Part shown: piece after piece, positions 23,455-54,585 of the stretch
Numbering within the stretch: the stretch's first letter is position 1
Layout of the letters: each line of letters opens with the position of its first letter
The notes under the pieces: generated by a model
Database searches by the model: none
What the model was told of the DNA's origin: nothing
Seen by the model: only the letters and a program-made list of their open reading frames with translations
Source of the DNA: Alphaproteobacteria bacterium
GTDB lineage: Bacteria; Pseudomonadota; Alphaproteobacteria; Reyranellales; Reyranellaceae
Length of the DNA stretch: 64,000 bases
NCBI GenBank assembly: GCA_019235415.1
Contig: JAFAKN010000131.1
Span: forward strand, 15,219-79,218
Direction of reading: 5' to 3'
Translations under genes and position numbers: made by a program

Positions 23455-24320
23455 CGTCCGCTGCGCGAATCGAGCCACACGTTTGCCGCGGCTGCGCCGA
23501 TCACGACGAGGCCGCCCGCGAGCGTGAGATCGGCCGGTTTTTCGCCGTCGAATAGCCATACCCAGAGCGGGCCCAGCACCAGCTCGAGCAAGCCAAGCAG
23601 GGCGGCGCGGCCGGCGGGGATGCGCTTGAGGCTCGTCACGTAAAGCAGGAGACCACCGGCGAGCTGGCCCGGACTCAGCGCCAGCAGCCACGGGAGTTGC
23701 GACCAGGTCACGGATTGCGGATGCGCGAACGGCAGCGCGACGAGGCCCGAGACGAGTCCAGCAAGCCAGATCGCCGGCGCCATGCCGACATCACGACGAT
23801 GACGCACGACGACGTAGTTTCCGCTCATGCAGAGCACGACGATGCCGGAGACGGCCATGCCGACCAGCGCATCGGCCTGCAACGACCCCGCGACGCTGAG
23901 CGCCAGTCCGAGAGCGGCGGCCGCCATGGCGAGAAGCGTATGACGATGCAATGGCTCACCGAGCAACAAGCGCGCGAGCAGGGCGGTGGTGAAGGGCGTG
24001 GCGCCGAACATCAGCAAGACGTTGGCGACCGGCGCCAGACCGAGCGCCAGAATGAAAGCGACGAACGCGCCGGCGAGCAGAATGGCACTTGCGAACAACG
24101 CTCTGCCGGCGTTGCGCACGTCGATCAGCAAGGTCCGACGCTGCCACAACAGCAACGGCAGCAGCGAAAGCGTCAGCAGCGCCGAGCGCCAGAAGGAGAT
24201 GTCCCATGCCGGCAGATCGATGCGGCGGACGATCACGCCTGCCGTGCTGAAGACCGTGGCGGCGCCCGCCGCACAGGCGACGCCCAGAGCGGAACTTTGC
24301 AAACGAGAGGGCGTTTTCAT
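23451..24320 (-). CDS. DMT/EamA family transporter
   Basis: About 10 TM segments; LLGEP, LLELVLGPLWVWLFDGE. Confidence 0.88.
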   Translation of the reverse strand: MKTPSRLQSSALGVACAAGAATVFSTAGVIVRRIDLPAWDISFWRSALLTLSLLPLLLWQRRTLLIDVRNAGRALFASAILLAGAFVAFILALGLAPVANVLLMFGATPFTTALLARLLLGEPLHRHTLLAMAAAALGLALSVAGSLQADALVGMAVSGIVVLCMSGNYVVVRHRRDVGMAPAIWLAGLVSGLVALPFAHPQSVTWSQLPWLLALSPGQLAGGLLLYVTSLKRIPAGRAALLGLLELVLGPLWVWLFDGEKPADLTLAGGLVVIGAAAANVWLDSRSGR

Positions 24321-24351
24321 GCGCGAGAGACGAAGTGAATACGGACTAGAC

Positions 24352-25353
24352 GTGCCCCCGTCCATCGATTCGATCACGCTCGATCTGCCGCCCTTTCGTG
24401 CACGCTTTCCCTGGTGGAACGCCGATCTGCAGACTGTTGCGGTATTGCTCGGCACGTGCGAGCCAGACCTTGCCCCCCATACCAGCGAACGCATCTGTTT
24501 CTGCATGGCAGATTCGAGCGGTGACATTCTTGTGGGCATGCTCGATCGGCCGGCCGAGCCGCAGGCCGGGCGCCCCCTCGTCATCCTGATCCACGGCCTG
24601 ACCGGCTGCGAGAACAGCTCGCACATCCTGAACGCCTCACGCCATCTGCTGGGGCGCGGCTATTGCGTGCTGCGACTCAACCTGCGCGGCTGCGGTGCAT
24701 CGCGCCCGCACTGCCGCGAGCACTATCACATCGGCCGCACCGCCGATTTCCGCCGCGTGCTGTGGCAACTGCCCGAGCAGGTCACCGACAACGGGATCGT
24801 CGTCGTGGGCTACTCGATGGGCGGCGCGATGCTTTTGAAATATCTCGGCGAGGAGGGCTCGTTCTCGCCACTGCGCGCGGCGGCGACGATCTGCGCGCCG
24901 ATCGACCTCAAGCGCACCGGACTGCACATGATGCGGCCGCGCAACTGGCTTTACCACGCCTACGTATTGGCCGGACTGAAGAAAGAGACGCTGGCCGAGG
25001 GCGGCGAGTTGTCGGCTGCAGAGCGCGAGATCGTACGCAACGCCAAGAGCATCTTCGAGTACGACGAACGGTTCCTCGCGCCGCGCTACGGCTTCCGCGG
25101 CGCGGAGGACTACTATGAGCTGTGCAATCCCTTGCACTACATGCCGGAGATCCGCGTGCCGACCATGGTGCTGGCGGCGGGCGATGATCCCTGGATCCCG
25201 GCCGAGTACTACCGCGACTTCGACTGGTCGTCGAACCGCTGGCTGGTGCCGCTGATCACCGAAGGCGGCGGTCACCTGGGCTTCCATTCGGCCGCGAGCG
25301 AGCAGCCGTGGTGTGACCTCGCGCTGGAGAAGTTTTTGGAGCGCGTCTGCTGA
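24352..25353 (+). CDS. YheT-like alpha/beta hydrolase (paralog 1; start uncertain)
   Basis: LIHGLTG, NLRGCG, GYSMGG nucleophile elbow, DDPWIP, GGHLGF. Confidence 0.88.
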   Translation: MPPSIDSITLDLPPFRARFPWWNADLQTVAVLLGTCEPDLAPHTSERICFCMADSSGDILVGMLDRPAEPQAGRPLVILIHGLTGCENSSHILNASRHLLGRGYCVLRLNLRGCGASRPHCREHYHIGRTADFRRVLWQLPEQVTDNGIVVVGYSMGGAMLLKYLGEEGSFSPLRAAATICAPIDLKRTGLHMMRPRNWLYHAYVLAGLKKETLAEGGELSAAEREIVRNAKSIFEYDERFLAPRYGFRGAEDYYELCNPLHYMPEIRVPTMVLAAGDDPWIPAEYYRDFDWSSNRWLVPLITEGGGHLGFHSAASEQPWCDLALEKFLERVC

Positions 25354-25381
25354 GGTGCCGGATGCTGTCGAGCGCCACCGG

Positions 25382-25448
25382 TGTCATCCCGAGCGCAGCG
25401 AGGGACCTTTGGACGATAGGCAAGGTCCCCCGCATTCGCTCGGGATGA
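25382..25448. repeat. REP-like family A copy between the hydrolase paralogs
   Basis: TGTCATCCCGAGCGCAGCGAGGGACC...GGTCCCCCGCATTCGCTCGGGATGA. Confidence 0.85.
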
Positions 25449-26491
25449 AAAACGGGGTCGCTTCTCCGGGCCTCGAGCCGATTGCTGCTGCGCGACTCTC
25501 GGGTAGCATCGACGTTGTGGACCTCGATTTGCCCCCGTTTCGGCCGCGCTTTCCCTGGTGGGGTGCCGATCTGCAGACTCTGGCCAACCGGCTGCGTTCG
25601 ATGCCGCGGTCGGTGGCACCCCACACGAGCGAGCGTGTGAAATTCCCGTTGCCCGACGGCAGCGGCGACATGCTTCTCGCCAGTCTCGACCAACCGGTGA
25701 CGTCGAAGGCGGGACGGCCGCTCGTCATCCTGGTCCATGGCCTCACCGGCGGCGAGGACAGCCTCTACATCCTCAGCATGGCGCACCTGATGCTGTCGCG
25801 CGGCAGCCGGGTGCTGCGTCTCAACCTGCGCGGTGCGGGACCGTCGCGGCCGCTCTGCCGCCAGCACTACTACGCCGGGCGCAGCCAGGACTTTCGTGCC
25901 GTGCTGTCGCTCCTGCCGCGCGAGCTCACGCGCGACGGCGTGGTCGCGGTCGGCTATTCGCTCGGCGGCGCAATGCTCCTGAAGTATCTGGGCGAGGAGG
26001 GTGACGCCACGCCGCTCGACGCGGCTGCGACGGTGTGCGCGCCGATCGATCTGGCAGCCGCCTGCCGTCACATGATGCGGCGGCGCAATCACCTCTACCA
26101 TCGCTATATTCTCGGCGAGATGAAGGTCGAGGCGACGGGCGAGGGGGCCGAGCTCGCGCCGGCCCACCGCGCGGCGATCGTGCAGGCGCGCTCGATCTGG
26201 GAATACGACGATCGCTTCATCGCCCCGCGCTATGGGTTTGCCGGCGCCGAGGACTACTACGAGCGCTGCCGGCCGACACGCTTCATGGGCGGGATAAGGA
26301 TCCCTACCCTGGTGATGGCGGCGCTGGACGATCCGTGGATTCCCGGCGCGCTCTACCGGGACTATGATTGGTCGAACCGGTCGCTCACGCCGCTGTTGCC
26401 AGCGCAGGGAGGCCACGTCGGCTTCCACGCACGCGGCAACCGCCAGCCGTGGAGCGATCTCGCCGTCGCGAGGTTCTTCGACCATGGCTGA
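25445..26491 (+). CDS. YheT-like alpha/beta hydrolase (paralog 2; start could be GTG 25517)
   Basis: LVHGLTG, NLRGAG, GYSLGG, DDPWIP, GGHVGF. Confidence 0.86.
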   Translation: MKNGVASPGLEPIAAARLSGSIDVVDLDLPPFRPRFPWWGADLQTLANRLRSMPRSVAPHTSERVKFPLPDGSGDMLLASLDQPVTSKAGRPLVILVHGLTGGEDSLYILSMAHLMLSRGSRVLRLNLRGAGPSRPLCRQHYYAGRSQDFRAVLSLLPRELTRDGVVAVGYSLGGAMLLKYLGEEGDATPLDAAATVCAPIDLAAACRHMMRRRNHLYHRYILGEMKVEATGEGAELAPAHRAAIVQARSIWEYDDRFIAPRYGFAGAEDYYERCRPTRFMGGIRIPTLVMAALDDPWIPGALYRDYDWSNRSLTPLLPAQGGHVGFHARGNRQPWSDLAVARFFDHG

Positions 26492-49005: not shown

Positions 49006-49266
49006 ATGGCAAGCAGCGTCGATCTTGGCCGCGAGCTGGAAAGATTCGTGGCCTCACTGGTCTCCAGCGGGAGATACAACTCCAAGAGCGAAGTGCTCCG
49101 CGAAGGACTTCGTTTGCTGCAGGAGCGCGAAAAGCGTCTTGCGGTTTTGGATGCCGCGCTGGACCAAGGGCTAGCCGCGGCAAATCTCGGCAAGCTCAAG
49201 CCAGCAGAAGAAGTGTTCGGTCGCCTCGAGGCCAAATACAGGAAGATGGCGAAGTCCAAGGCGTGA
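49006..49266 (+). CDS. ParD-like antitoxin (Arc/MetJ fold)
   Basis: LERFVASLVSSGRYNSKSEVLREGLRLLQERE. Confidence 0.88.
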   Translation: MASSVDLGRELERFVASLVSSGRYNSKSEVLREGLRLLQEREKRLAVLDAALDQGLAAANLGKLKPAEEVFGRLEAKYRKMAKSKA

Positions 49267-49568
49267 GAGTCTCTTTCACGGAGCCTGCCGAGGAAGACCT
49301 CGAGGCGATTGGCGATTGGATAGTCAGGGATAACCCCGATCGGGCCATCACATTCGTGCGCGAGCTACGCCGCTCCTGCCTCCAAATCGGTTCACGACCC
49401 CGCAGCTATCCGTTTGTCGAACATCGGCTCAATGATGGCATTCGCCGCAGAGTGCACGGAAACTATCTGATCTTTTATCGGGTAACTGACACGGTCGAGA
49501 TTCTTCGCATCCTGCCCGGTGCTCGCGACTACGGTCGCATTCTCTTCGGCGATGATGACTTAGACTAG
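49263..49568 (+). CDS. ParE/RelE family toxin
   Basis: FTEPAEEDLEAIGDWI, GNYLIFY, ILRILPGARD; GTGA overlap with the antitoxin. Confidence 0.88.
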   Translation: MRVSFTEPAEEDLEAIGDWIVRDNPDRAITFVRELRRSCLQIGSRPRSYPFVEHRLNDGIRRRVHGNYLIFYRVTDTVEILRILPGARDYGRILFGDDDLD

Positions 49569-50531
49569 CCGCGTTATCGTTTGCGAGCCGCCGCCCCACA
49601 CCGGCAGGTAGGTCATCTTGTAGCCGGCGCCGCCGGTGACGATGACGTGGATCGCATCGGGGGCGCGCGCGACGCCATCGCCGTGCTCGAACATGTAGCG
49701 CTGCACGTGGAAAAGATCCCAGCCGTCGTGCCGCACGATCTTCTCGGCCATCTCCAGCGGCAGCAGCACGACCTGCTCGCCGCGCTCGTTGCGCCGGCTC
49801 ATGCTCGACATGACGAGCGCCGCGCGCATTCCCGCGACGATCGGCGAGAGGATCGCTTCCGGCGTGGCGCCTTCGCCGTCGCCCGGCAGGACCTCGGCAG
49901 TTCCCGACACGCCCATCACGGTGACGGCGCTGGCGTCGCCAGCCAGGCCGCGCCGCGCCGTCAGGGTGGGGAAGGGGCCGTCGCTGCGCTCGGCGAAGCA
50001 GAACGTGTACTTGCCGGGCTGCCCCATGGTCGCCATGTCGCCGACCTCGGCGCGCGCGCCGCCGATGTTGCGGATGACGAGCTGCAGGGCGCGTCCGACG
50101 CAGGCGTTGGCGCGGTTGCCCGGTCCCAGGCAGTTGGTGCCGGCATTGATGGCGAGCTGGCGCGCGATCGATCCGTGCACGCACAACGCGACGCAGGCCG
50201 TGCCCGTGGTGGTGGCGACGCCCAGCAGGTTGAAGTCCGGCTCGAGCACTGCCGCGGCGGCGGTGAGCACTACCGGCAGTTCGGCCGGCGTGCAGCCGGC
50301 GATCACGCATTGGTAGGCGACGGCCTCGGCGGTGACGTCGCCGAACATCGGCGGCATGAGGCCGTGCGATTCGCTGCGGTCCGGTATCCCGACGAGCATC
50401 GCCTCGAGGCGATGCCGCGTCGGCGGCACCATTGGCAGCCCGTCCGACAGCTCGGCGTCGATCAGGGTTTTTTGCGCGGCCTCGAAGCCCGTGCCCTCGT
50501 CGACGACGGGCCAGCCGCACCACCCGCTCAT
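49560..50531 (-). CDS. Uncharacterised protein, UGSC-operon partner (paralog B)
   Basis: SDGLPMVPPT, AGC, NCLG, GQPGKYTFCFAE, IVTGGAG; start overlaps paralog A stop. Confidence 0.8.
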   Translation of the reverse strand: MSGWCGWPVVDEGTGFEAAQKTLIDAELSDGLPMVPPTRHRLEAMLVGIPDRSESHGLMPPMFGDVTAEAVAYQCVIAGCTPAELPVVLTAAAAVLEPDFNLLGVATTTGTACVALCVHGSIARQLAINAGTNCLGPGNRANACVGRALQLVIRNIGGARAEVGDMATMGQPGKYTFCFAERSDGPFPTLTARRGLAGDASAVTVMGVSGTAEVLPGDGEGATPEAILSPIVAGMRAALVMSSMSRRNERGEQVVLLPLEMAEKIVRHDGWDLFHVQRYMFEHGDGVARAPDAIHVIVTGGAGYKMTYLPVWGGGSQTITRLV

Positions 50532-51565
50532 CCCGGGATGCGGACCGCCGCGACCGTCGTTCCGCCAAAGGACGGAATGAAGGCGGAATGCTTCCCCGGA
50601 CCGCCGGCCACCGTGATGTGGATGTCCTGTGGCGAAGGCGCGATCGCGAACCAGTCGCCGTCGGGCTTGTGGCCGGTGCTGATGTAGGTGTCCTGGTTTT
50701 CCTTGGAAATGCGCGAGACGTGGACGCGCGCGCGCTTGAACAGCTCCTCGCGGATGCTGTCCAGCGTGTAGCCGTCCCGCTTCAAAGTCGCAGCATGCTC
50801 GGGCCCGACGACCACGAACATCGGCCCCTTGCCGTAGATCGTGTTGGCGCCCGGCGTCGCCATGCTGCCGGCGAAGGTCGTGAGCAGGCCATCGCCGGTC
50901 GTGCTGCCATGGTCGTTGAGATTGTGCGGCCCTTCGCCGGACATCACCGTCACCACGTTGTCGCTCGCAGCGAAGCCGCGCTGGACGTGGTAGGGCTGCC
51001 AAGGATTCTCCTCCTCGTTCTCGCCGAAGCAGAACGTGTACTTGGCGGGATTGCCCTGCGTCGAGCGGTCCATCTCGCCCGGCTTGGCACCGGCGATATT
51101 CAGAAGCATCAGCCCGAGCGCCCGACCGATCGTGGCGTTGGCCTGCCAGCCCTGGCCGAAACAGTTGGAGCCACAGTTGATGCCGAGCGCGCGGCGGATG
51201 GGTCCGCTCACCATGACCATCGGCGCGCAGGAATGCGTGGTCGCGAGCGTGCCGTGCAGGTTGTAGTCGGGGTCGAGCACGCCGCGCAGCGCGGCGGTCA
51301 CGACGGGGAAGTACTCCGGCTTGCAGCCGGCCATCACGGCGTTGGCCGCGAGGCTCTGCAAGGTGGGCACGATCTGGCGCGGCGGCACCGGCGCGAACGG
51401 CCGGTTGTCGCCGCGCACCGTGTCGACGAACTTCGCCACCTTGTCCTCGGTGGGCACGTAGAGCGGCATGCCGTCGCTCCAGCCCTGCTCGACGGCGAAG
51501 TCGTTGAACGCCTCGACATCGAGATCGGCGATCTCGATGACCTCCTGCTCGGCGATGTCCTTCAT
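50528..51565 (-). CDS. Uncharacterised protein, UGSC-operon partner (paralog A)
   Basis: SDGMPLYVPT, AGC, NCFG, GNPAKYTFCFGE, VAGGPG; ATG overlaps the selenoprotein stop. Confidence 0.82.
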   Translation of the reverse strand: MKDIAEQEVIEIADLDVEAFNDFAVEQGWSDGMPLYVPTEDKVAKFVDTVRGDNRPFAPVPPRQIVPTLQSLAANAVMAGCKPEYFPVVTAALRGVLDPDYNLHGTLATTHSCAPMVMVSGPIRRALGINCGSNCFGQGWQANATIGRALGLMLLNIAGAKPGEMDRSTQGNPAKYTFCFGENEEENPWQPYHVQRGFAASDNVVTVMSGEGPHNLNDHGSTTGDGLLTTFAGSMATPGANTIYGKGPMFVVVGPEHAATLKRDGYTLDSIREELFKRARVHVSRISKENQDTYISTGHKPDGDWFAIAPSPQDIHITVAGGPGKHSAFIPSFGGTTVAAVRIPG

Positions 51566-52083
51566 TGAGTATCCGTGGCCTCGGCCAGACCCTTGGTTGC
51601 GGTTTCGATGCGTTCCCGGAGCTCGTCGGCGTTCAGCCCGCCGATCGGATGCTTCACGACGATCAGCCGCGGCTCGACCTTGCGGGCCTTCGCCTGGGCC
51701 ATCACCAGCGGCCTGAACGTCTCAGTGGCGATCACGTAAGCGGTGATGCCGCGCTTCTCGAGCTCGATGCTGTCGTGGAAACTCCACGATGAACAGCTTC
51801 CTCAATCCGCTATCGCTAAAAGCGCCCCGCGGTACTTGGCGGCGACCTCCTCGAGCAGGTCCTTGGGGGCCGGCTGGCTGGCGCTGTTCTTGGCCAGGAA
51901 CTCGATGTTCTCGACCGGCCGGAAGGCGCCCAGCTTGCTGCGGATGCCGGCAAGCAGCTCGCGCGCGTTGGGCTTGGAATTGGACACCAGGGCAATGGCG
52001 TCGGTCCTCCAGTTGACCGGCTTCAGCGCGACCTTCTCGGCCGTGGTGGCCGAGAGACCGAACGTCGGATTGACGATGCGCAT
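51562..52083 (-). CDS. UGSC-family selenoprotein (173 aa; TGA at 51802-51804 read as Sec94)
   Basis: ORF continues in frame for 79 codons after the TGA (AIAD-U-GSCSSWSFHDSIELEKRGI...HPIGGL) to a stop overlapping the next ATG; SD GAGGAGG; SECIS-like hairpin follows. Confidence 0.85.
51769..51797 (-). promoter_or_regulatory. Putative bacterial SECIS element
   Basis: GCTG-TTCA-TCGTGGA-[GTT]-TCCACGA-CAGC; apical loop starts with G, 19 nt after the TGA. Confidence 0.7.
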
Positions 52084-52113
52084 GCACGTTCCTCCTCAAC
52101 TCTTGCCGAGGGC

Positions 52114-52983
52114 CTAGCTCTCGCCGAGCGCCTTGGCGATGGCGCGCCCGGCGCGCTCGCCGTCGGCGATCGCTTCGGCCAACGATTGCCGGGCGCCCAA
52201 CCGGATGTCGCCCACGGCGAACGCCGAAGCGACGGAGGTGCGGCCCTCGTCGTCGACCACGATATGCCCTGATGCGTCGCGTGCAAGCGAATCCGGCACG
52301 AATTCCGCAGCGGGAGCCCGGCCGACATAGACGAACGCGCCACTGGCCGGCAGGATCTTCCGCGCGCCATCAGTCTCCACCACGACGCTCTCCAGCCCGT
52401 TGCTGCCTTCGAGGGCCACGATGCGCCCAGCGATGCAGCGCATCCCGCCGGTCCCAGTCGGCGGCGCAGGGTCGACGACCGTGACGTCGTCGGTGAACGA
52501 CTTCAGCTCCTCCGCTTCCTGCCAGCCCCAGTTGGCGGCGCCGACGACAACGACCGGCTGGCCGGCATAGAGCGGTCCATCGCACGAGGCGCAGTGCGAG
52601 ACGCCGCGCCCTTCGTAGTCCTCCTCGCCGTCGACTCCCAGTCGTCCCTTGGCAAGGCCGCTTGCGATCACGACCGAGCGCGCCGTGTGGCGCTCGCCTT
52701 CGGCGGTTTCGACAGCCCACGGCGCGCTGCCCGAGAGCTGCGTGACTTCGCCGAAGCCGAGCTCGACGCCGGCTTCGGTCGCCGCGTCGCTGAGGCGCGC
52801 CGCGATCGTCGGTCCGTCCGCGGCGTCTTCCACATTGTGCAAGTGGGTGAGGTTGATCAGCGCCCCACCCGGCGCGAGCTTGTCGAGGCAGAGCGTGCGC
52901 AGGCCAGCTTGTGCCGCCTGCGTCGCGGCACTGAGGCCGGCCGGACCGGCACCGATGACGACGACATCGTACGAAGTTTCCAT
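52114..52983 (-). CDS. Thioredoxin reductase-like FAD oxidoreductase (atypical nicotinamide site)
   Basis: GAGPAG, GRGVSHCASCDG (CxxC), FAVGD; NADPH motif altered. Confidence 0.85.
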   Translation of the reverse strand: METSYDVVVIGAGPAGLSAATQAAQAGLRTLCLDKLAPGGALINLTHLHNVEDAADGPTIAARLSDAATEAGVELGFGEVTQLSGSAPWAVETAEGERHTARSVVIASGLAKGRLGVDGEEDYEGRGVSHCASCDGPLYAGQPVVVVGAANWGWQEAEELKSFTDDVTVVDPAPPTGTGGMRCIAGRIVALEGSNGLESVVVETDGARKILPASGAFVYVGRAPAAEFVPDSLARDASGHIVVDDEGRTSVASAFAVGDIRLGARQSLAEAIADGERAGRAIAKALGES

Positions 52984-52989
52984 CGTGCC

Positions 52990-53063
52990 ACTAATCGATC
53001 TTCCGCTACGAAGTGCAAGCGGCTTGACTCGGAACGGCCACATACCTAGTAATGCTAGGTATG
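52990..53063. promoter_or_regulatory. Back-to-back promoters and PadR-type operator
   Basis: Minus: TTGCAC-N17-ATTAGT, 6 nt before the reductase ATG. Plus: TTGACT-N17-TAGTAA(T), 7-8 nt before the padR ATG. Perfect inverted repeat CATACCTAG-TAATG-CTAGGTATG at 53041-53063. Confidence 0.65.
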
Positions 53064-53396
53064 GATGCGGAGATGCTCAAAGGTCACCTCGACGCCATCG
53101 TCCTGGCGGCGCTCGAAGCAGGTCCGGCGCACGGCTACGCGGTCATCGAGACCATCCGGGCGCGCAGCGGCCAGACGTTCGATCTGCCGGAAGGCACGAT
53201 CTATCCGGCACTGCACCGCCTGGAGCAGGCGGGGCTGCTGTCGAGCAGCTGGACGACGCCGCCCAGCGGCCGACGACGGCGCGTCTATTCCCTGACCAAG
53301 GCCGGGGCAGCAGCACTCGCCCGGCGTCGCAAGGACTGGACTCGGTTTGCGGGCGCCGTCGACAGCTTCCTCGGGGGACGCGCATGGCCGGCCTGA
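53061..53396 (+). CDS. PadR family transcriptional regulator
   Basis: LKGHLDAIVL, HGYAVI, EGTIYPALHRLE, RRRVYSLT. Confidence 0.92.
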   Translation: MDAEMLKGHLDAIVLAALEAGPAHGYAVIETIRARSGQTFDLPEGTIYPALHRLEQAGLLSSSWTTPPSGRRRRVYSLTKAGAAALARRRKDWTRFAGAVDSFLGGRAWPA

Positions 53397-53998
53397 TCGA
53401 GACCTATGTCGCCGACTTGCGCCGCGAGCTCGACTTCGACCGGCTTGCCGCTCAGCGCATCGCGAACGAGGTCGAGGACCATTTGCGCGAGTCGGCCGAG
53501 GCCGATCCAGCCTGGCCATCGCCGGACGCGGAGCGCCGGGCGATCGAGCGCTTCGGGCTCGGCCGCGAGATCGCCGCGCAATTCGCCGCCGACGCCATCG
53601 ATCGGCAGGCGCGGCGAACGTGGATGACGGTGTTGGCCTGTGTGATCGTGACGTTTGTCGCCATGCGCCTGCGCGTGATCTGGCTCGATGGCGAGACGGT
53701 CTCGGCCTTGGCGCCGTTGGTCGATCGATATGCCTTTCTCGGCGCCATCGCCGCCGCGACCGTGGGCTGGTTCGCGTTGCGCCGGTCGTTGCTGGCGCTG
53801 TCGCTCTGTCTTGTCGGCCTGGGCGCATCGATTGCCGCGGGCTTCGTGCGCGCGGACCTGTTCGCGCACGGGGCGCCGCTCGGCGTGCTGCTGACGGCAG
53901 GCGGCGAAATCCTGTTGGTCGGCTTGCTCTGCGTCCATCTCGTCGGCTTCGGCCGGCAGCTGCGGCGCACGGCGGCATTACGGGGAGCTCTGCGATGA
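53384..53998 (+). CDS. PadR-associated membrane protein
   Basis: N-terminal YV..L...I..EVEDHL.E...AIERFG motif followed by about 4 TM segments. Confidence 0.72.
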   Translation: MAGLIETYVADLRRELDFDRLAAQRIANEVEDHLRESAEADPAWPSPDAERRAIERFGLGREIAAQFAADAIDRQARRTWMTVLACVIVTFVAMRLRVIWLDGETVSALAPLVDRYAFLGAIAAATVGWFALRRSLLALSLCLVGLGASIAAGFVRADLFAHGAPLGVLLTAGGEILLVGLLCVHLVGFGRQLRRTAALRGALR

Positions 53999-54585
53999 AC
54001 GGTTGGCGCTTGACGGGTCTTCTGTCGCTTGTGCTGCTGGCGATGTCGCTTGCACTGGGGACGTTGCACGCCTGGGATATGGAAAGCGTCCGTCTGGTGA
54101 TCCGAGCGACGGCGCGCACCTCGCTGGTGCTGTTCGTGCTGGCCTTCACGGCGGGCGCCATGGCGCAGCTCGCGCCGGGCGAGGTTACGCGCTGGCAGCG
54201 GCGCAACCGGCGCTATCTAGGGGTGTCGTTCGCCGTCTCGCACTTCATCCATCTCGCGGCGATCCTCAGCCTCGCGGCGTTCGACAATGCGCTGTTCTGG
54301 AAGCTTACCAACGTCATGACCATCGTCCTCGCAGGCACCGCGTACCTGTTCATCGCGGCGATGACCGCGACATCCTTCGATCGCACGGCCGCCTGGCTCG
54401 GGCCACGGCGCTGGCGGCTGCTGCATCTGGTCGGCAGCTGGTACATCTGGCTGAGCTTCGCCGTCGCGATCGGCAAGCGCGTGCCGCTCGACCGCTTCTA
54501 CTGGCCGCTGGCGGCGCTCGTGCTGGCGGCAGCGGGCGTGCGGCTGATCGCGATGACACGGCGCAACCGACGCGCGCTCGCTTAA
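53995..54585 (+). CDS. Ferric reductase-like transmembrane (MsrQ-like) protein
   Basis: RRYLGVSFAVSHFIHL and WRLLHLVG with candidate heme His ligands. Confidence 0.72.
   Translation: MNGWRLTGLLSLVLLAMSLALGTLHAWDMESVRLVIRATARTSLVLFVLAFTAGAMAQLAPGEVTRWQRRNRRYLGVSFAVSHFIHLAAILSLAAFDNALFWKLTNVMTIVLAGTAYLFIAAMTATSFDRTAAWLGPRRWRLLHLVGSWYIWLSFAVAIGKRVPLDRFYWPLAALVLAAAGVRLIAMTRRNRRALA

Follow-up and report, generated by a model that had tools for sequence, protein, structure and literature searches.

A UGSC-family selenoprotein and an unnamed partner family form a conserved two-gene unit

Selenoproteins of the UGSC family are among the commonest in prokaryotes and have been listed for almost twenty years without a function. 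The DNA analysed here is a 64 kb stretch of contig JAFAKN010000131.1 from a Reyranellaceae alphaproteobacterium (hereafter the window). It carries a gene for one such protein within a cluster of four genes on the minus strand (49560-52983). The question raised by this locus is which protein UGSC works with, and what the two might do together. The comparisons described below point to UGSC being one half of a two-part enzyme, the other half being drawn from a large unannotated family. For a selenoprotein that ranks among the commonest in aquatic settings, this linkage offers a lead that can be tested.

A two-gene core within a four-gene cluster

The genes occur in the order flavoprotein, UGSC selenoprotein, paralog A and paralog B. 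The first (52114..52983) encodes a 289 aa flavin adenine dinucleotide (FAD) protein resembling thioredoxin reductase (TrxR), with the motifs VVVIGAGPAG and C-A-S-C. The second (51562..52083) has 173 codons and places selenocysteine (Sec) 94 in the motif D-U-G-S-C. Paralog A (50528..51565; 345 aa) belongs to an unnamed family, of which paralog B (49560..50531; 323 aa) is a diverged copy. The reductase stop codon and the UGSC ATG are separated by 30 nt (52084-52113). This gap contains a Shine-Dalgarno sequence, GAGGAGGA, that was read from the sequence at 52090..52097, 6 nt 5' of the ATG. ATGA overlaps join UGSC to paralog A (51562-51565) and paralog A to paralog B (50528-50531). The preliminary description of the locus, made from the DNA letters alone, had reported four co-oriented genes in this order, the 30 nt gap and the 4 bp overlaps, and was exact in every detail. 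The identical four-gene order was seen again in 17 related genomes. Given this recurrence, and a conserved hairpin 3' of the TGA codon, the arrangement is not due to chance. Scans for promoters and terminators at the cluster gave no signal above chance, and an Rfam scan of the region matched no family.

We searched for the same genes elsewhere, using profiles and reading through TGA codons, in 80 loci from species-representative genomes. UGSC was encoded on the same strand as a gene of the paralog A family in 73 of the 80 loci, and the two were no more than 260 nt apart in 69. Linked loci span Alpha- and Betaproteobacteria, Binatia, Rokubacteria, Actinomycetota, Bacillota, Chloroflexota and Eremiobacterota. 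Seven loci were without UGSC; three of these are cut by contig ends and four are from Poribacteria. Copy numbers of UGSC and partner were equal, at three and three in loci L031 and L036, and at two and two in L033, L037, L053 and L077. In an independent plasmid collection, 16 of 16 UGSC matches adjoined an A-family match, and these included the cysteine (Cys) forms of haloarchaea. Hence, of the co-occurrence envisaged in the preliminary description, the part concerning UGSC and the paralog family proved very tight, whereas the reductase accompanies them in a minority of lineages.

The two proteins are also found as fusions. At locus L081 (106-1815), UGSC and partner form a single 569 aa frame with an in-frame TGA; another natural fusion, from Robertmurraya, lies in L049. 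Fusions were counted among the 150 best family representatives at 50% identity. UGSC-partner fusions, in both domain orders, made up 55 of these, and tandem A-A fusions a further six. In 38 of the 55 the called protein starts or stops at the Sec codon, as a result of gene calling. The U/C-x-x-C motif was retained in 11 of 17 full-length fusions. A fusion of UGSC to an unknown domain, 'Unknown_1', which may possibly be the partner family, has been mentioned previously (PMC2398784).

One further fusion is encoded by a plasmid of Sporomusa termitida (L086:6323-8047). The protein has 574 aa and its UGSC domain reads G-D-M-G-T-S-S. The fusion gene is followed by genes for a 475 aa FAD-dependent oxidoreductase and an MFS transporter.

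In a census of neighbouring genes, no third gene proved to be shared across phyla; the conserved core consists of UGSC and one partner gene. Recurrent neighbours elsewhere encode TctC/TRAP binding proteins, MmgE/PrpD, CoA-transferases, SDRs, hydratases and LysR regulators. Taken together, linkage and fusion are as strong as comparative evidence gets for a physical and functional unit. This two-part system, UGSC with an unnamed partner family, has not previously been described as a system, and the partner is the new part.

Recoding of UGSC and residues of the partner family

The UGSC frame contains a single in-frame TGA, at codon 94 (51804..51802), so that D-U-G-S-C occupies codons 93-97. Pfam model PF24696 (UGSC) matches residues 3-166, across the TGA, with 125.3 bits against a cutoff of 25 (E 3.7e-36). 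With U written as C, NCBIfam model NF041046 scores 114.8 bits, just under its equivalog cutoff of 125. By these matches the protein is a member of a catalogued family and is not new. It corresponds to the 'UGSC-containing protein' of marine selenoproteome surveys, which has been listed since 2007-2008. The selenoprotein cannot stand as undescribed, as was first supposed, since Pfam and NCBIfam models exist. The family is among the most abundant selenoproteins of the GOS data, with 255 Sec and 21 Cys forms (PMC2398784), and a 2026 review files it as uncharacterised. A thioredoxin-like fold has been suggested in the literature. Thioredoxin-type Pfam families gave no match to six diverse UGSC proteins at E values up to 10, and a PDB sequence search with UGSC and the UGSC profile found no relative.

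We next consider the signal for recoding. The UGA codon and the Sec insertion sequence (SECIS) hairpin together occupy 51769..51804. The core stem has 7 bp, formed by nt 15-21 and 27-33 after the U of the UGA (51790-51772), and the hairpin has in addition a lower stem, GCUG/CAGC. Across 36 distinct sequences, 94.8% of cells in the stem were paired, and compensatory double changes occurred in six of the seven pairs. In the apical loop, G23 and U24 were invariant. None of 500 shuffles reached these pairing values and no slid register came close. The window hairpin on its own was no more stable than shuffled sequence (z = -0.58). Hence, the SECIS is visible only through the comparative count.

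The SECIS stem (51772-51790) also encodes a peptide, S-W-S-x-H-D, which follows the UGSC motif and covaries with the stem. Locus L041 has S-L-W-C-I-Q-S in place of this peptide, and its stem has been rebuilt accordingly as GCUCUGG/CCAGAGC. Cys forms from mycobacteria and Roseovarius lack the H-D of this peptide.

Could the TGA instead be a true stop or a sequencing error, with the 'selenoprotein' a broken or split gene? Gene callers do yield products of 93 and 56 aa, and neither a Sec machinery gene nor a tRNA-Sec was found in the window: no tRNA was detected across the 64 kb, and no sel gene among the ten size-appropriate open reading frames (ORFs) scanned. Conversely, the codon is TGA in 69 of the 73 UGSC homologs that adjoin A-family genes, drawn from many phyla, and Cys in the other four. 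The frame and the family match run on across the TGA, and a covarying hairpin with an invariant GU loop lies 3' of it. We find a broken gene hardly credible. UGSC and partner genes are systematically mis-annotated by gene callers at the Sec codon. The 93 aa and 56 aa products were seen at L090:5889-6407. UGSC-partner fusions also account for many database entries of 405-460 aa, in which the call starts just after, or ends at, the TGA.

We then turned to the partner. Paralogs A and B share 31% identity over ~330 residues (E 5e-45). The two proteins and all 26 diverse family members scanned matched no Pfam or NCBIfam model, even at E 5, and a PDB sequence search with paralog A and its profile found no match. 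The proposal that the paralogs correspond to no characterised enzyme is borne out by these searches. At 90% identity the family falls into over 7,000 clusters, every one labelled 'hypothetical'. In the 50%-identity library there are 7,891 representatives at E 1e-3, and 2,476 at E 1e-30. An AlphaFold model of paralog A, built from a 137-sequence alignment, had a pLDDT of 92.3 and a pTM of 0.92; the single-sequence model (pLDDT 33) was unusable. When the better model was compared with the PDB using Foldseek there was no convincing neighbour, the best E value being 6e-4 (to class I fumarate hydratases) and the probabilities 0.6-0.8. Apart from fumarate hydratases of class I (Fe-S), the search turned up only cyclic amide hydrolases of the 'Toblerone-fold' type, and all of these matches were weak.

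Paralog A carries every residue that the family conserves: C81, T109/T110, H111, N143, R148, D166, K175, C179, E182, H193, H214, H219, E256 and H257. The set has the look of an active site, and the substrate would be small and probably anionic. Paralog B retains C81, T109/T110, N143, R148, D166, K175, C179 and E182, and lacks H111, H193, H214, H219 and H257 together with a segment of ~40 aa. All five histidines are replaced throughout the B clade, and Cys81 is replaced in 9 of its 23 sequences (the window copy retains Cys81). Hence, paralog B is likely to be an auxiliary subunit. The A and B pair is limited to one alphaproteobacterial clade. The preliminary description had treated the paralog pair as the substrate-handling unit. 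That view needs correction, as the pair is confined to one clade and B has lost most of the conserved histidines.

In some alphaproteobacteria (L020 and L022) three partner paralogs, A, A' and B, follow one UGSC gene, and protein P0145 appears to be an A-B fusion. Both arrangements are consistent with a hetero-oligomer.

The flavoprotein, selenoprotein B and the flanking genes

NCBI lists an identical 289 aa protein under the name 'FAD-dependent oxidoreductase', which supports the start of the flavoprotein at 52983. Its best PDB sequence matches are low-Mr thioredoxin reductases (5mh4, 4.5e-42). Against TIGR01292 (TrxB) it scored 187.6 bits in two stretches, below the equivalog cutoff of 343.45. 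The FAD-binding VVVIGAGPAG and the redox motif C-A-S-C-D-G are present, and are conserved in all adjacent homologs. The motifs for nicotinamide adenine dinucleotide phosphate (NADPH) are missing from the flavoprotein and its orthologs, with GAANWG in place of GGGxxA and VDPAPPTGTGG in place of HRRxxxR. At the latter sequence the pyridine-nucleotide domain has a deletion of ~11-20 aa. Because the NADPH-site motifs are missing, the electron donor is probably not NADPH.

A TrxR-type gene adjoins the pair in L001-L017 (a Reyranella-like clade), L021, L023 and L031. It lies downstream at ~1 kb or less in L025 and at ~6 kb in L041. On a Roseovarius plasmid, a canonical trxB (GGGNTA, HRRDELRA) sits beside a Cys-form UGSC. 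The adjacent genes belong to clearly different TrxR subtypes, which suggests that reductases were recruited repeatedly next to the pair. A CxxC flavoprotein beside a UxxC selenoprotein fits the redox relay put forward at the outset.

We also examined the relationship of UGSC to selenoprotein B. GrdB, GrdF, GrdH and PrdB genes were taken from annotated records for comparison using hhalign. The UGSC profile aligned with residues 330-405 of GrdB/F/H (93.5% probability, E 2.4e-7) and with residues 85-177 of PrdB (78.8%, E 1.6e-5). In these alignments Sec falls on Sec, and HPxG on HPLG. Controls (reversed sequences, a CxxC flavoprotein, the A family and GrdG) gave 0.1-4%. The alignments identify UGSC as a short, distant homolog of the catalytic Sec domain of GrdB/PrdB, and not as a GrdA-like carrier. 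A PDB sequence search with GrdB found no match. An analogy with glycine reductase had been drawn in the preliminary description. The homology to the GrdB/PrdB Sec domain upholds it for UGSC, but the partner is unrelated to GrdE/PrdA. The idea of a small, GrdA-type selenoprotein serving larger subunits does not survive, since UGSC resembles the catalytic B domain and is often fused. For these same reasons, resemblance and fusion, UGSC is best described as a subunit of one enzyme.

The locus might be an ordinary glycine, sarcosine, betaine or D-proline reductase operon, given that UGSC aligns with the Sec region of GrdB/PrdB and that grd operons also contain a TrxR-type gene. However, selenoprotein B model PF07355 gave no match to six diverse UGSC proteins at E values up to 10. 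The partner profile showed no kinship to GrdG and the betaine-reductase B subunit (0.7% probability), and the family is unrelated to GrdE, PrdA and the N-terminal half of GrdB. Neither grdA, grdC nor grdD was found in the cluster, which consists of four genes flanked by parDE and padR. In addition, the hosts include aerobes and haloarchaea. We consider such an operon very improbable; the PF07355, partner and grdA/C/D results rule out membership of the glycine and proline reductases.

The wider surroundings, liv transporter genes on one side of the cluster and a DHDPS-family gene on the other, are the same in its relatives. Immediately upstream is a cassette (53052-54585) of padR, a gene for a HAAS-domain membrane protein and a gene for a 196 aa membrane protein. 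At the 5' end of padR, within the 68 nt region shared with the divergent reductase gene, is a perfect 8 bp inverted repeat, ATACCTAG-TAATG-CTAGGTAT (53042..53062). The core of this palindrome is unique in the window (0 of 100 shuffles) and occupies the same place in every fetched locus with padR. The palindrome is likely to be a PadR operator, and it possibly controls the operon in this genome. Only ~8 of 15 close relatives carry the cassette. With so many relatives lacking it, we regard it as a variable insertion that lies outside the unit.

A stress-type PadR regulator with a conserved candidate operator is what might be expected if the cluster were an antioxidant or detoxifying thiol-selenol system. 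UGSC would then be a peroxidase or disulfide reductase, recycled by the flavoprotein, and A and B would mainly stabilise it. The UxxC motif with an adjacent CxxC flavoprotein agrees with such a role, and reviews place UGSC among redox selenoproteins. In addition, the title of reference B55 (PMC3091704) refers to a peroxidase activity of GrdB and to stabilisation of GrdB by GrdE components. Conversely, the cassette is missing from about half of the closest relatives, and contexts in other taxa are catabolic. Simple stabilisation is an improbable role for a 340 aa partner whose family has ~7,900 clusters and in which Arg, Lys, Asp, Glu, Asn and His residues are invariant. Differently diverged modules within one genome (L031, L036) suggest different substrates. 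On balance we judge this role to be quite unlikely.

At the other end of the cluster is a parD/parE toxin-antitoxin pair (49006-49568), which is convergent with the operon; the 3' end of parE overlaps that of paralog B by 9 nt. Among fetched relatives parDE was present only in L014, L090 and L091. The pair was rejected as part of the unit, being missing from many close relatives. Elsewhere in the window (23986-26491), two tandem, slightly overlapping ORFs both match a PRK10985-type hydrolase model.

A working model and its known relatives

In our working model the locus encodes a two-part Sec/Cys-dependent reductase, formed by UGSC and its partner, that is recycled by a dedicated flavoprotein. 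We take this to be the likeliest reading of the locus, at about even odds, and put reductive chemistry in itself at similar odds. For this organism we infer the physical complex, the direction of electron flow and the type of substrate. One part of the core would be the enzyme-like partner protein, that is paralog A, with B as a diverged and probably auxiliary subunit; the other part would be UGSC. A/B would bind a small substrate, probably a carboxylate, in a predicted pocket of Cys81, Cys179, Arg148, Lys175, Asp166, Glu182 and several His. Docked on this pocket, Sec94/Cys97 of UGSC would then give two electrons. It might attack the substrate directly, in the manner proposed for PrdB, or reduce a Cys81/Cys179 disulfide. 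Either way, Sec94/Cys97 would end as a Se-S bond. The adjacent CxxC flavoprotein, its own donor probably not being NADPH, may re-reduce this bond.

There are precedents for such a scheme. In the mechanism proposed for PrdB, Sec attacks the substrate, a neighbouring Cys resolves the product to a Se-S bond, and re-reduction follows (PMC3091704). In glycine reductase, electrons pass along an NADPH-TrxR-Trx-GrdA-GrdB chain (PMC3091704). We take these precedents as grounds for a working model, and not for membership.

Several observations weigh against the model. The Poribacteria loci L073, L075, L076 and L078 have the partner gene and no UGSC within 8 kb, and are the only clear exceptions to linkage. 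In the Sporomusa fusion and in four of the 17 full-length fusions, neither UGSC redox residue is left, although Cys81 and Cys179 of the partner are kept. Because those fusions lost both residues, it appears that the partner can act without the UGSC redox pair in some lineages. The redox pair, as far as these sequences go, is usual and not obligatory. Of 66 non-redundant loci, only ~10 have a reductase gene along with the pair, and so a dedicated relay is not a general feature. The varied neighbours (transporters, CoA-transferases, MmgE/PrpD, SDRs and hydratases) point to no single substrate. Finally, the partner is dissimilar to the pyruvoyl proteins GrdE and PrdA. Hence, the PrdA/PrdB mechanism is not simply transferable.

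Alternatively, the partner might act on small organic acids without reducing them, for example as an isomerase, lyase, dehydratase or hydrolase, with UGSC in a structural or regulatory role. The Sec/Cys pair would be a redox switch or a protective lid, and the reductase would only keep it reduced. Fusions without Cys or Sec in the UGSC domain, in which all partner active-site residues are kept, agree with this proposal. So do the minority of loci with a reductase gene and the recurrence of catabolic neighbours (MmgE/PrpD, CoA-transferase, enoyl-CoA hydratase and TctC/TRAP binding proteins). The weak fold resemblance is, moreover, to hydro-lyases and cyclic amide hydrolases and not to reductases. 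However, Sec is costly, and yet 69 of 73 neighbours retain it with the SECIS preserved, a pattern typical of catalytic residues. UGSC is also homologous to the catalytic Sec domain of GrdB/PrdB, and different TrxR subtypes were recruited independently beside the pair. We therefore regard a non-reductive partner as rather unlikely, and retain the two-part reductase as the working model.

More broadly, UGSC and its partner could represent a new class of Sec-dependent enzyme, with a catalytic subunit whose fold is not yet in the PDB, and a widespread, largely aerobic counterpart of the Stickland-type reductases. We advance this idea tentatively, and with some doubt. A mini selenoprotein-B domain would bring Sec to a new active site, and small carboxylates would be reductively cleaved or reduced; in the present lineage, the enzyme would be powered by a flavoprotein that abandoned NADPH. 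If true, one of the most abundant marine and freshwater selenoproteins would thereby acquire a function. The present analysis relates UGSC to selenoprotein B through its Sec domain, and cultured organisms offer fusions as well as natural Cys forms. Cys forms occur on a plasmid of Roseovarius sp. THAF8, in Halalkalicoccus jeotgali and in Mycobacterium gordonae.

How, then, does the locus compare with known systems? For the partner, the nearest are the class I fumarases and 'Toblerone-fold' hydrolases. Their local 3Di likeness to paralog A is weak and, with TM-scores of 0.21-0.28 and a root mean square deviation of 12-18 Å, there is no useful shared fold. Class I fumarases have a three-Cys cluster site, whereas the partner family has just two invariant Cys, which is too few.

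The flavoprotein shares with TrxB (TIGR01292) a two-domain FAD fold, an N-terminal GxGxxG and a CxxC in the second domain. It differs in lacking GGGxxA and HRRxxxR, and its score is far under the cutoff. The length of 289 aa is close to that of the 288-294 aa PDB entries 6gna to 6gnd. These entries are probably ferredoxin-dependent flavin thioredoxin reductases.

UGSC is most like selenoprotein B (GrdB, GrdF, GrdH and PrdB). Both have U-G-[ST]-C-T followed by E-x-x-G-I-P and H-P-x-G, both work with a second, larger protein, and both are associated with a TrxR-type gene. However, UGSC is short (~175 aa), with no counterpart of the 215-330 residues at the N-terminus of GrdB. Its partner comes from an unrelated family and is not the pyruvoyl proprotein GrdE/PrdA, and GrdA, GrdC and GrdD are absent. 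Selenoprotein B belongs to amino-acid-fermenting anaerobes, whereas UGSC is found in aerobic Proteobacteria, mycobacteria and haloarchaea. Within the UGSC family (PF24696) the window protein is no different from other members. To the picture of this family the present comparisons add a constant partner, a measure of how often the two are fused, the homology with selenoprotein B, and a dedicated reductase that is occasionally present.

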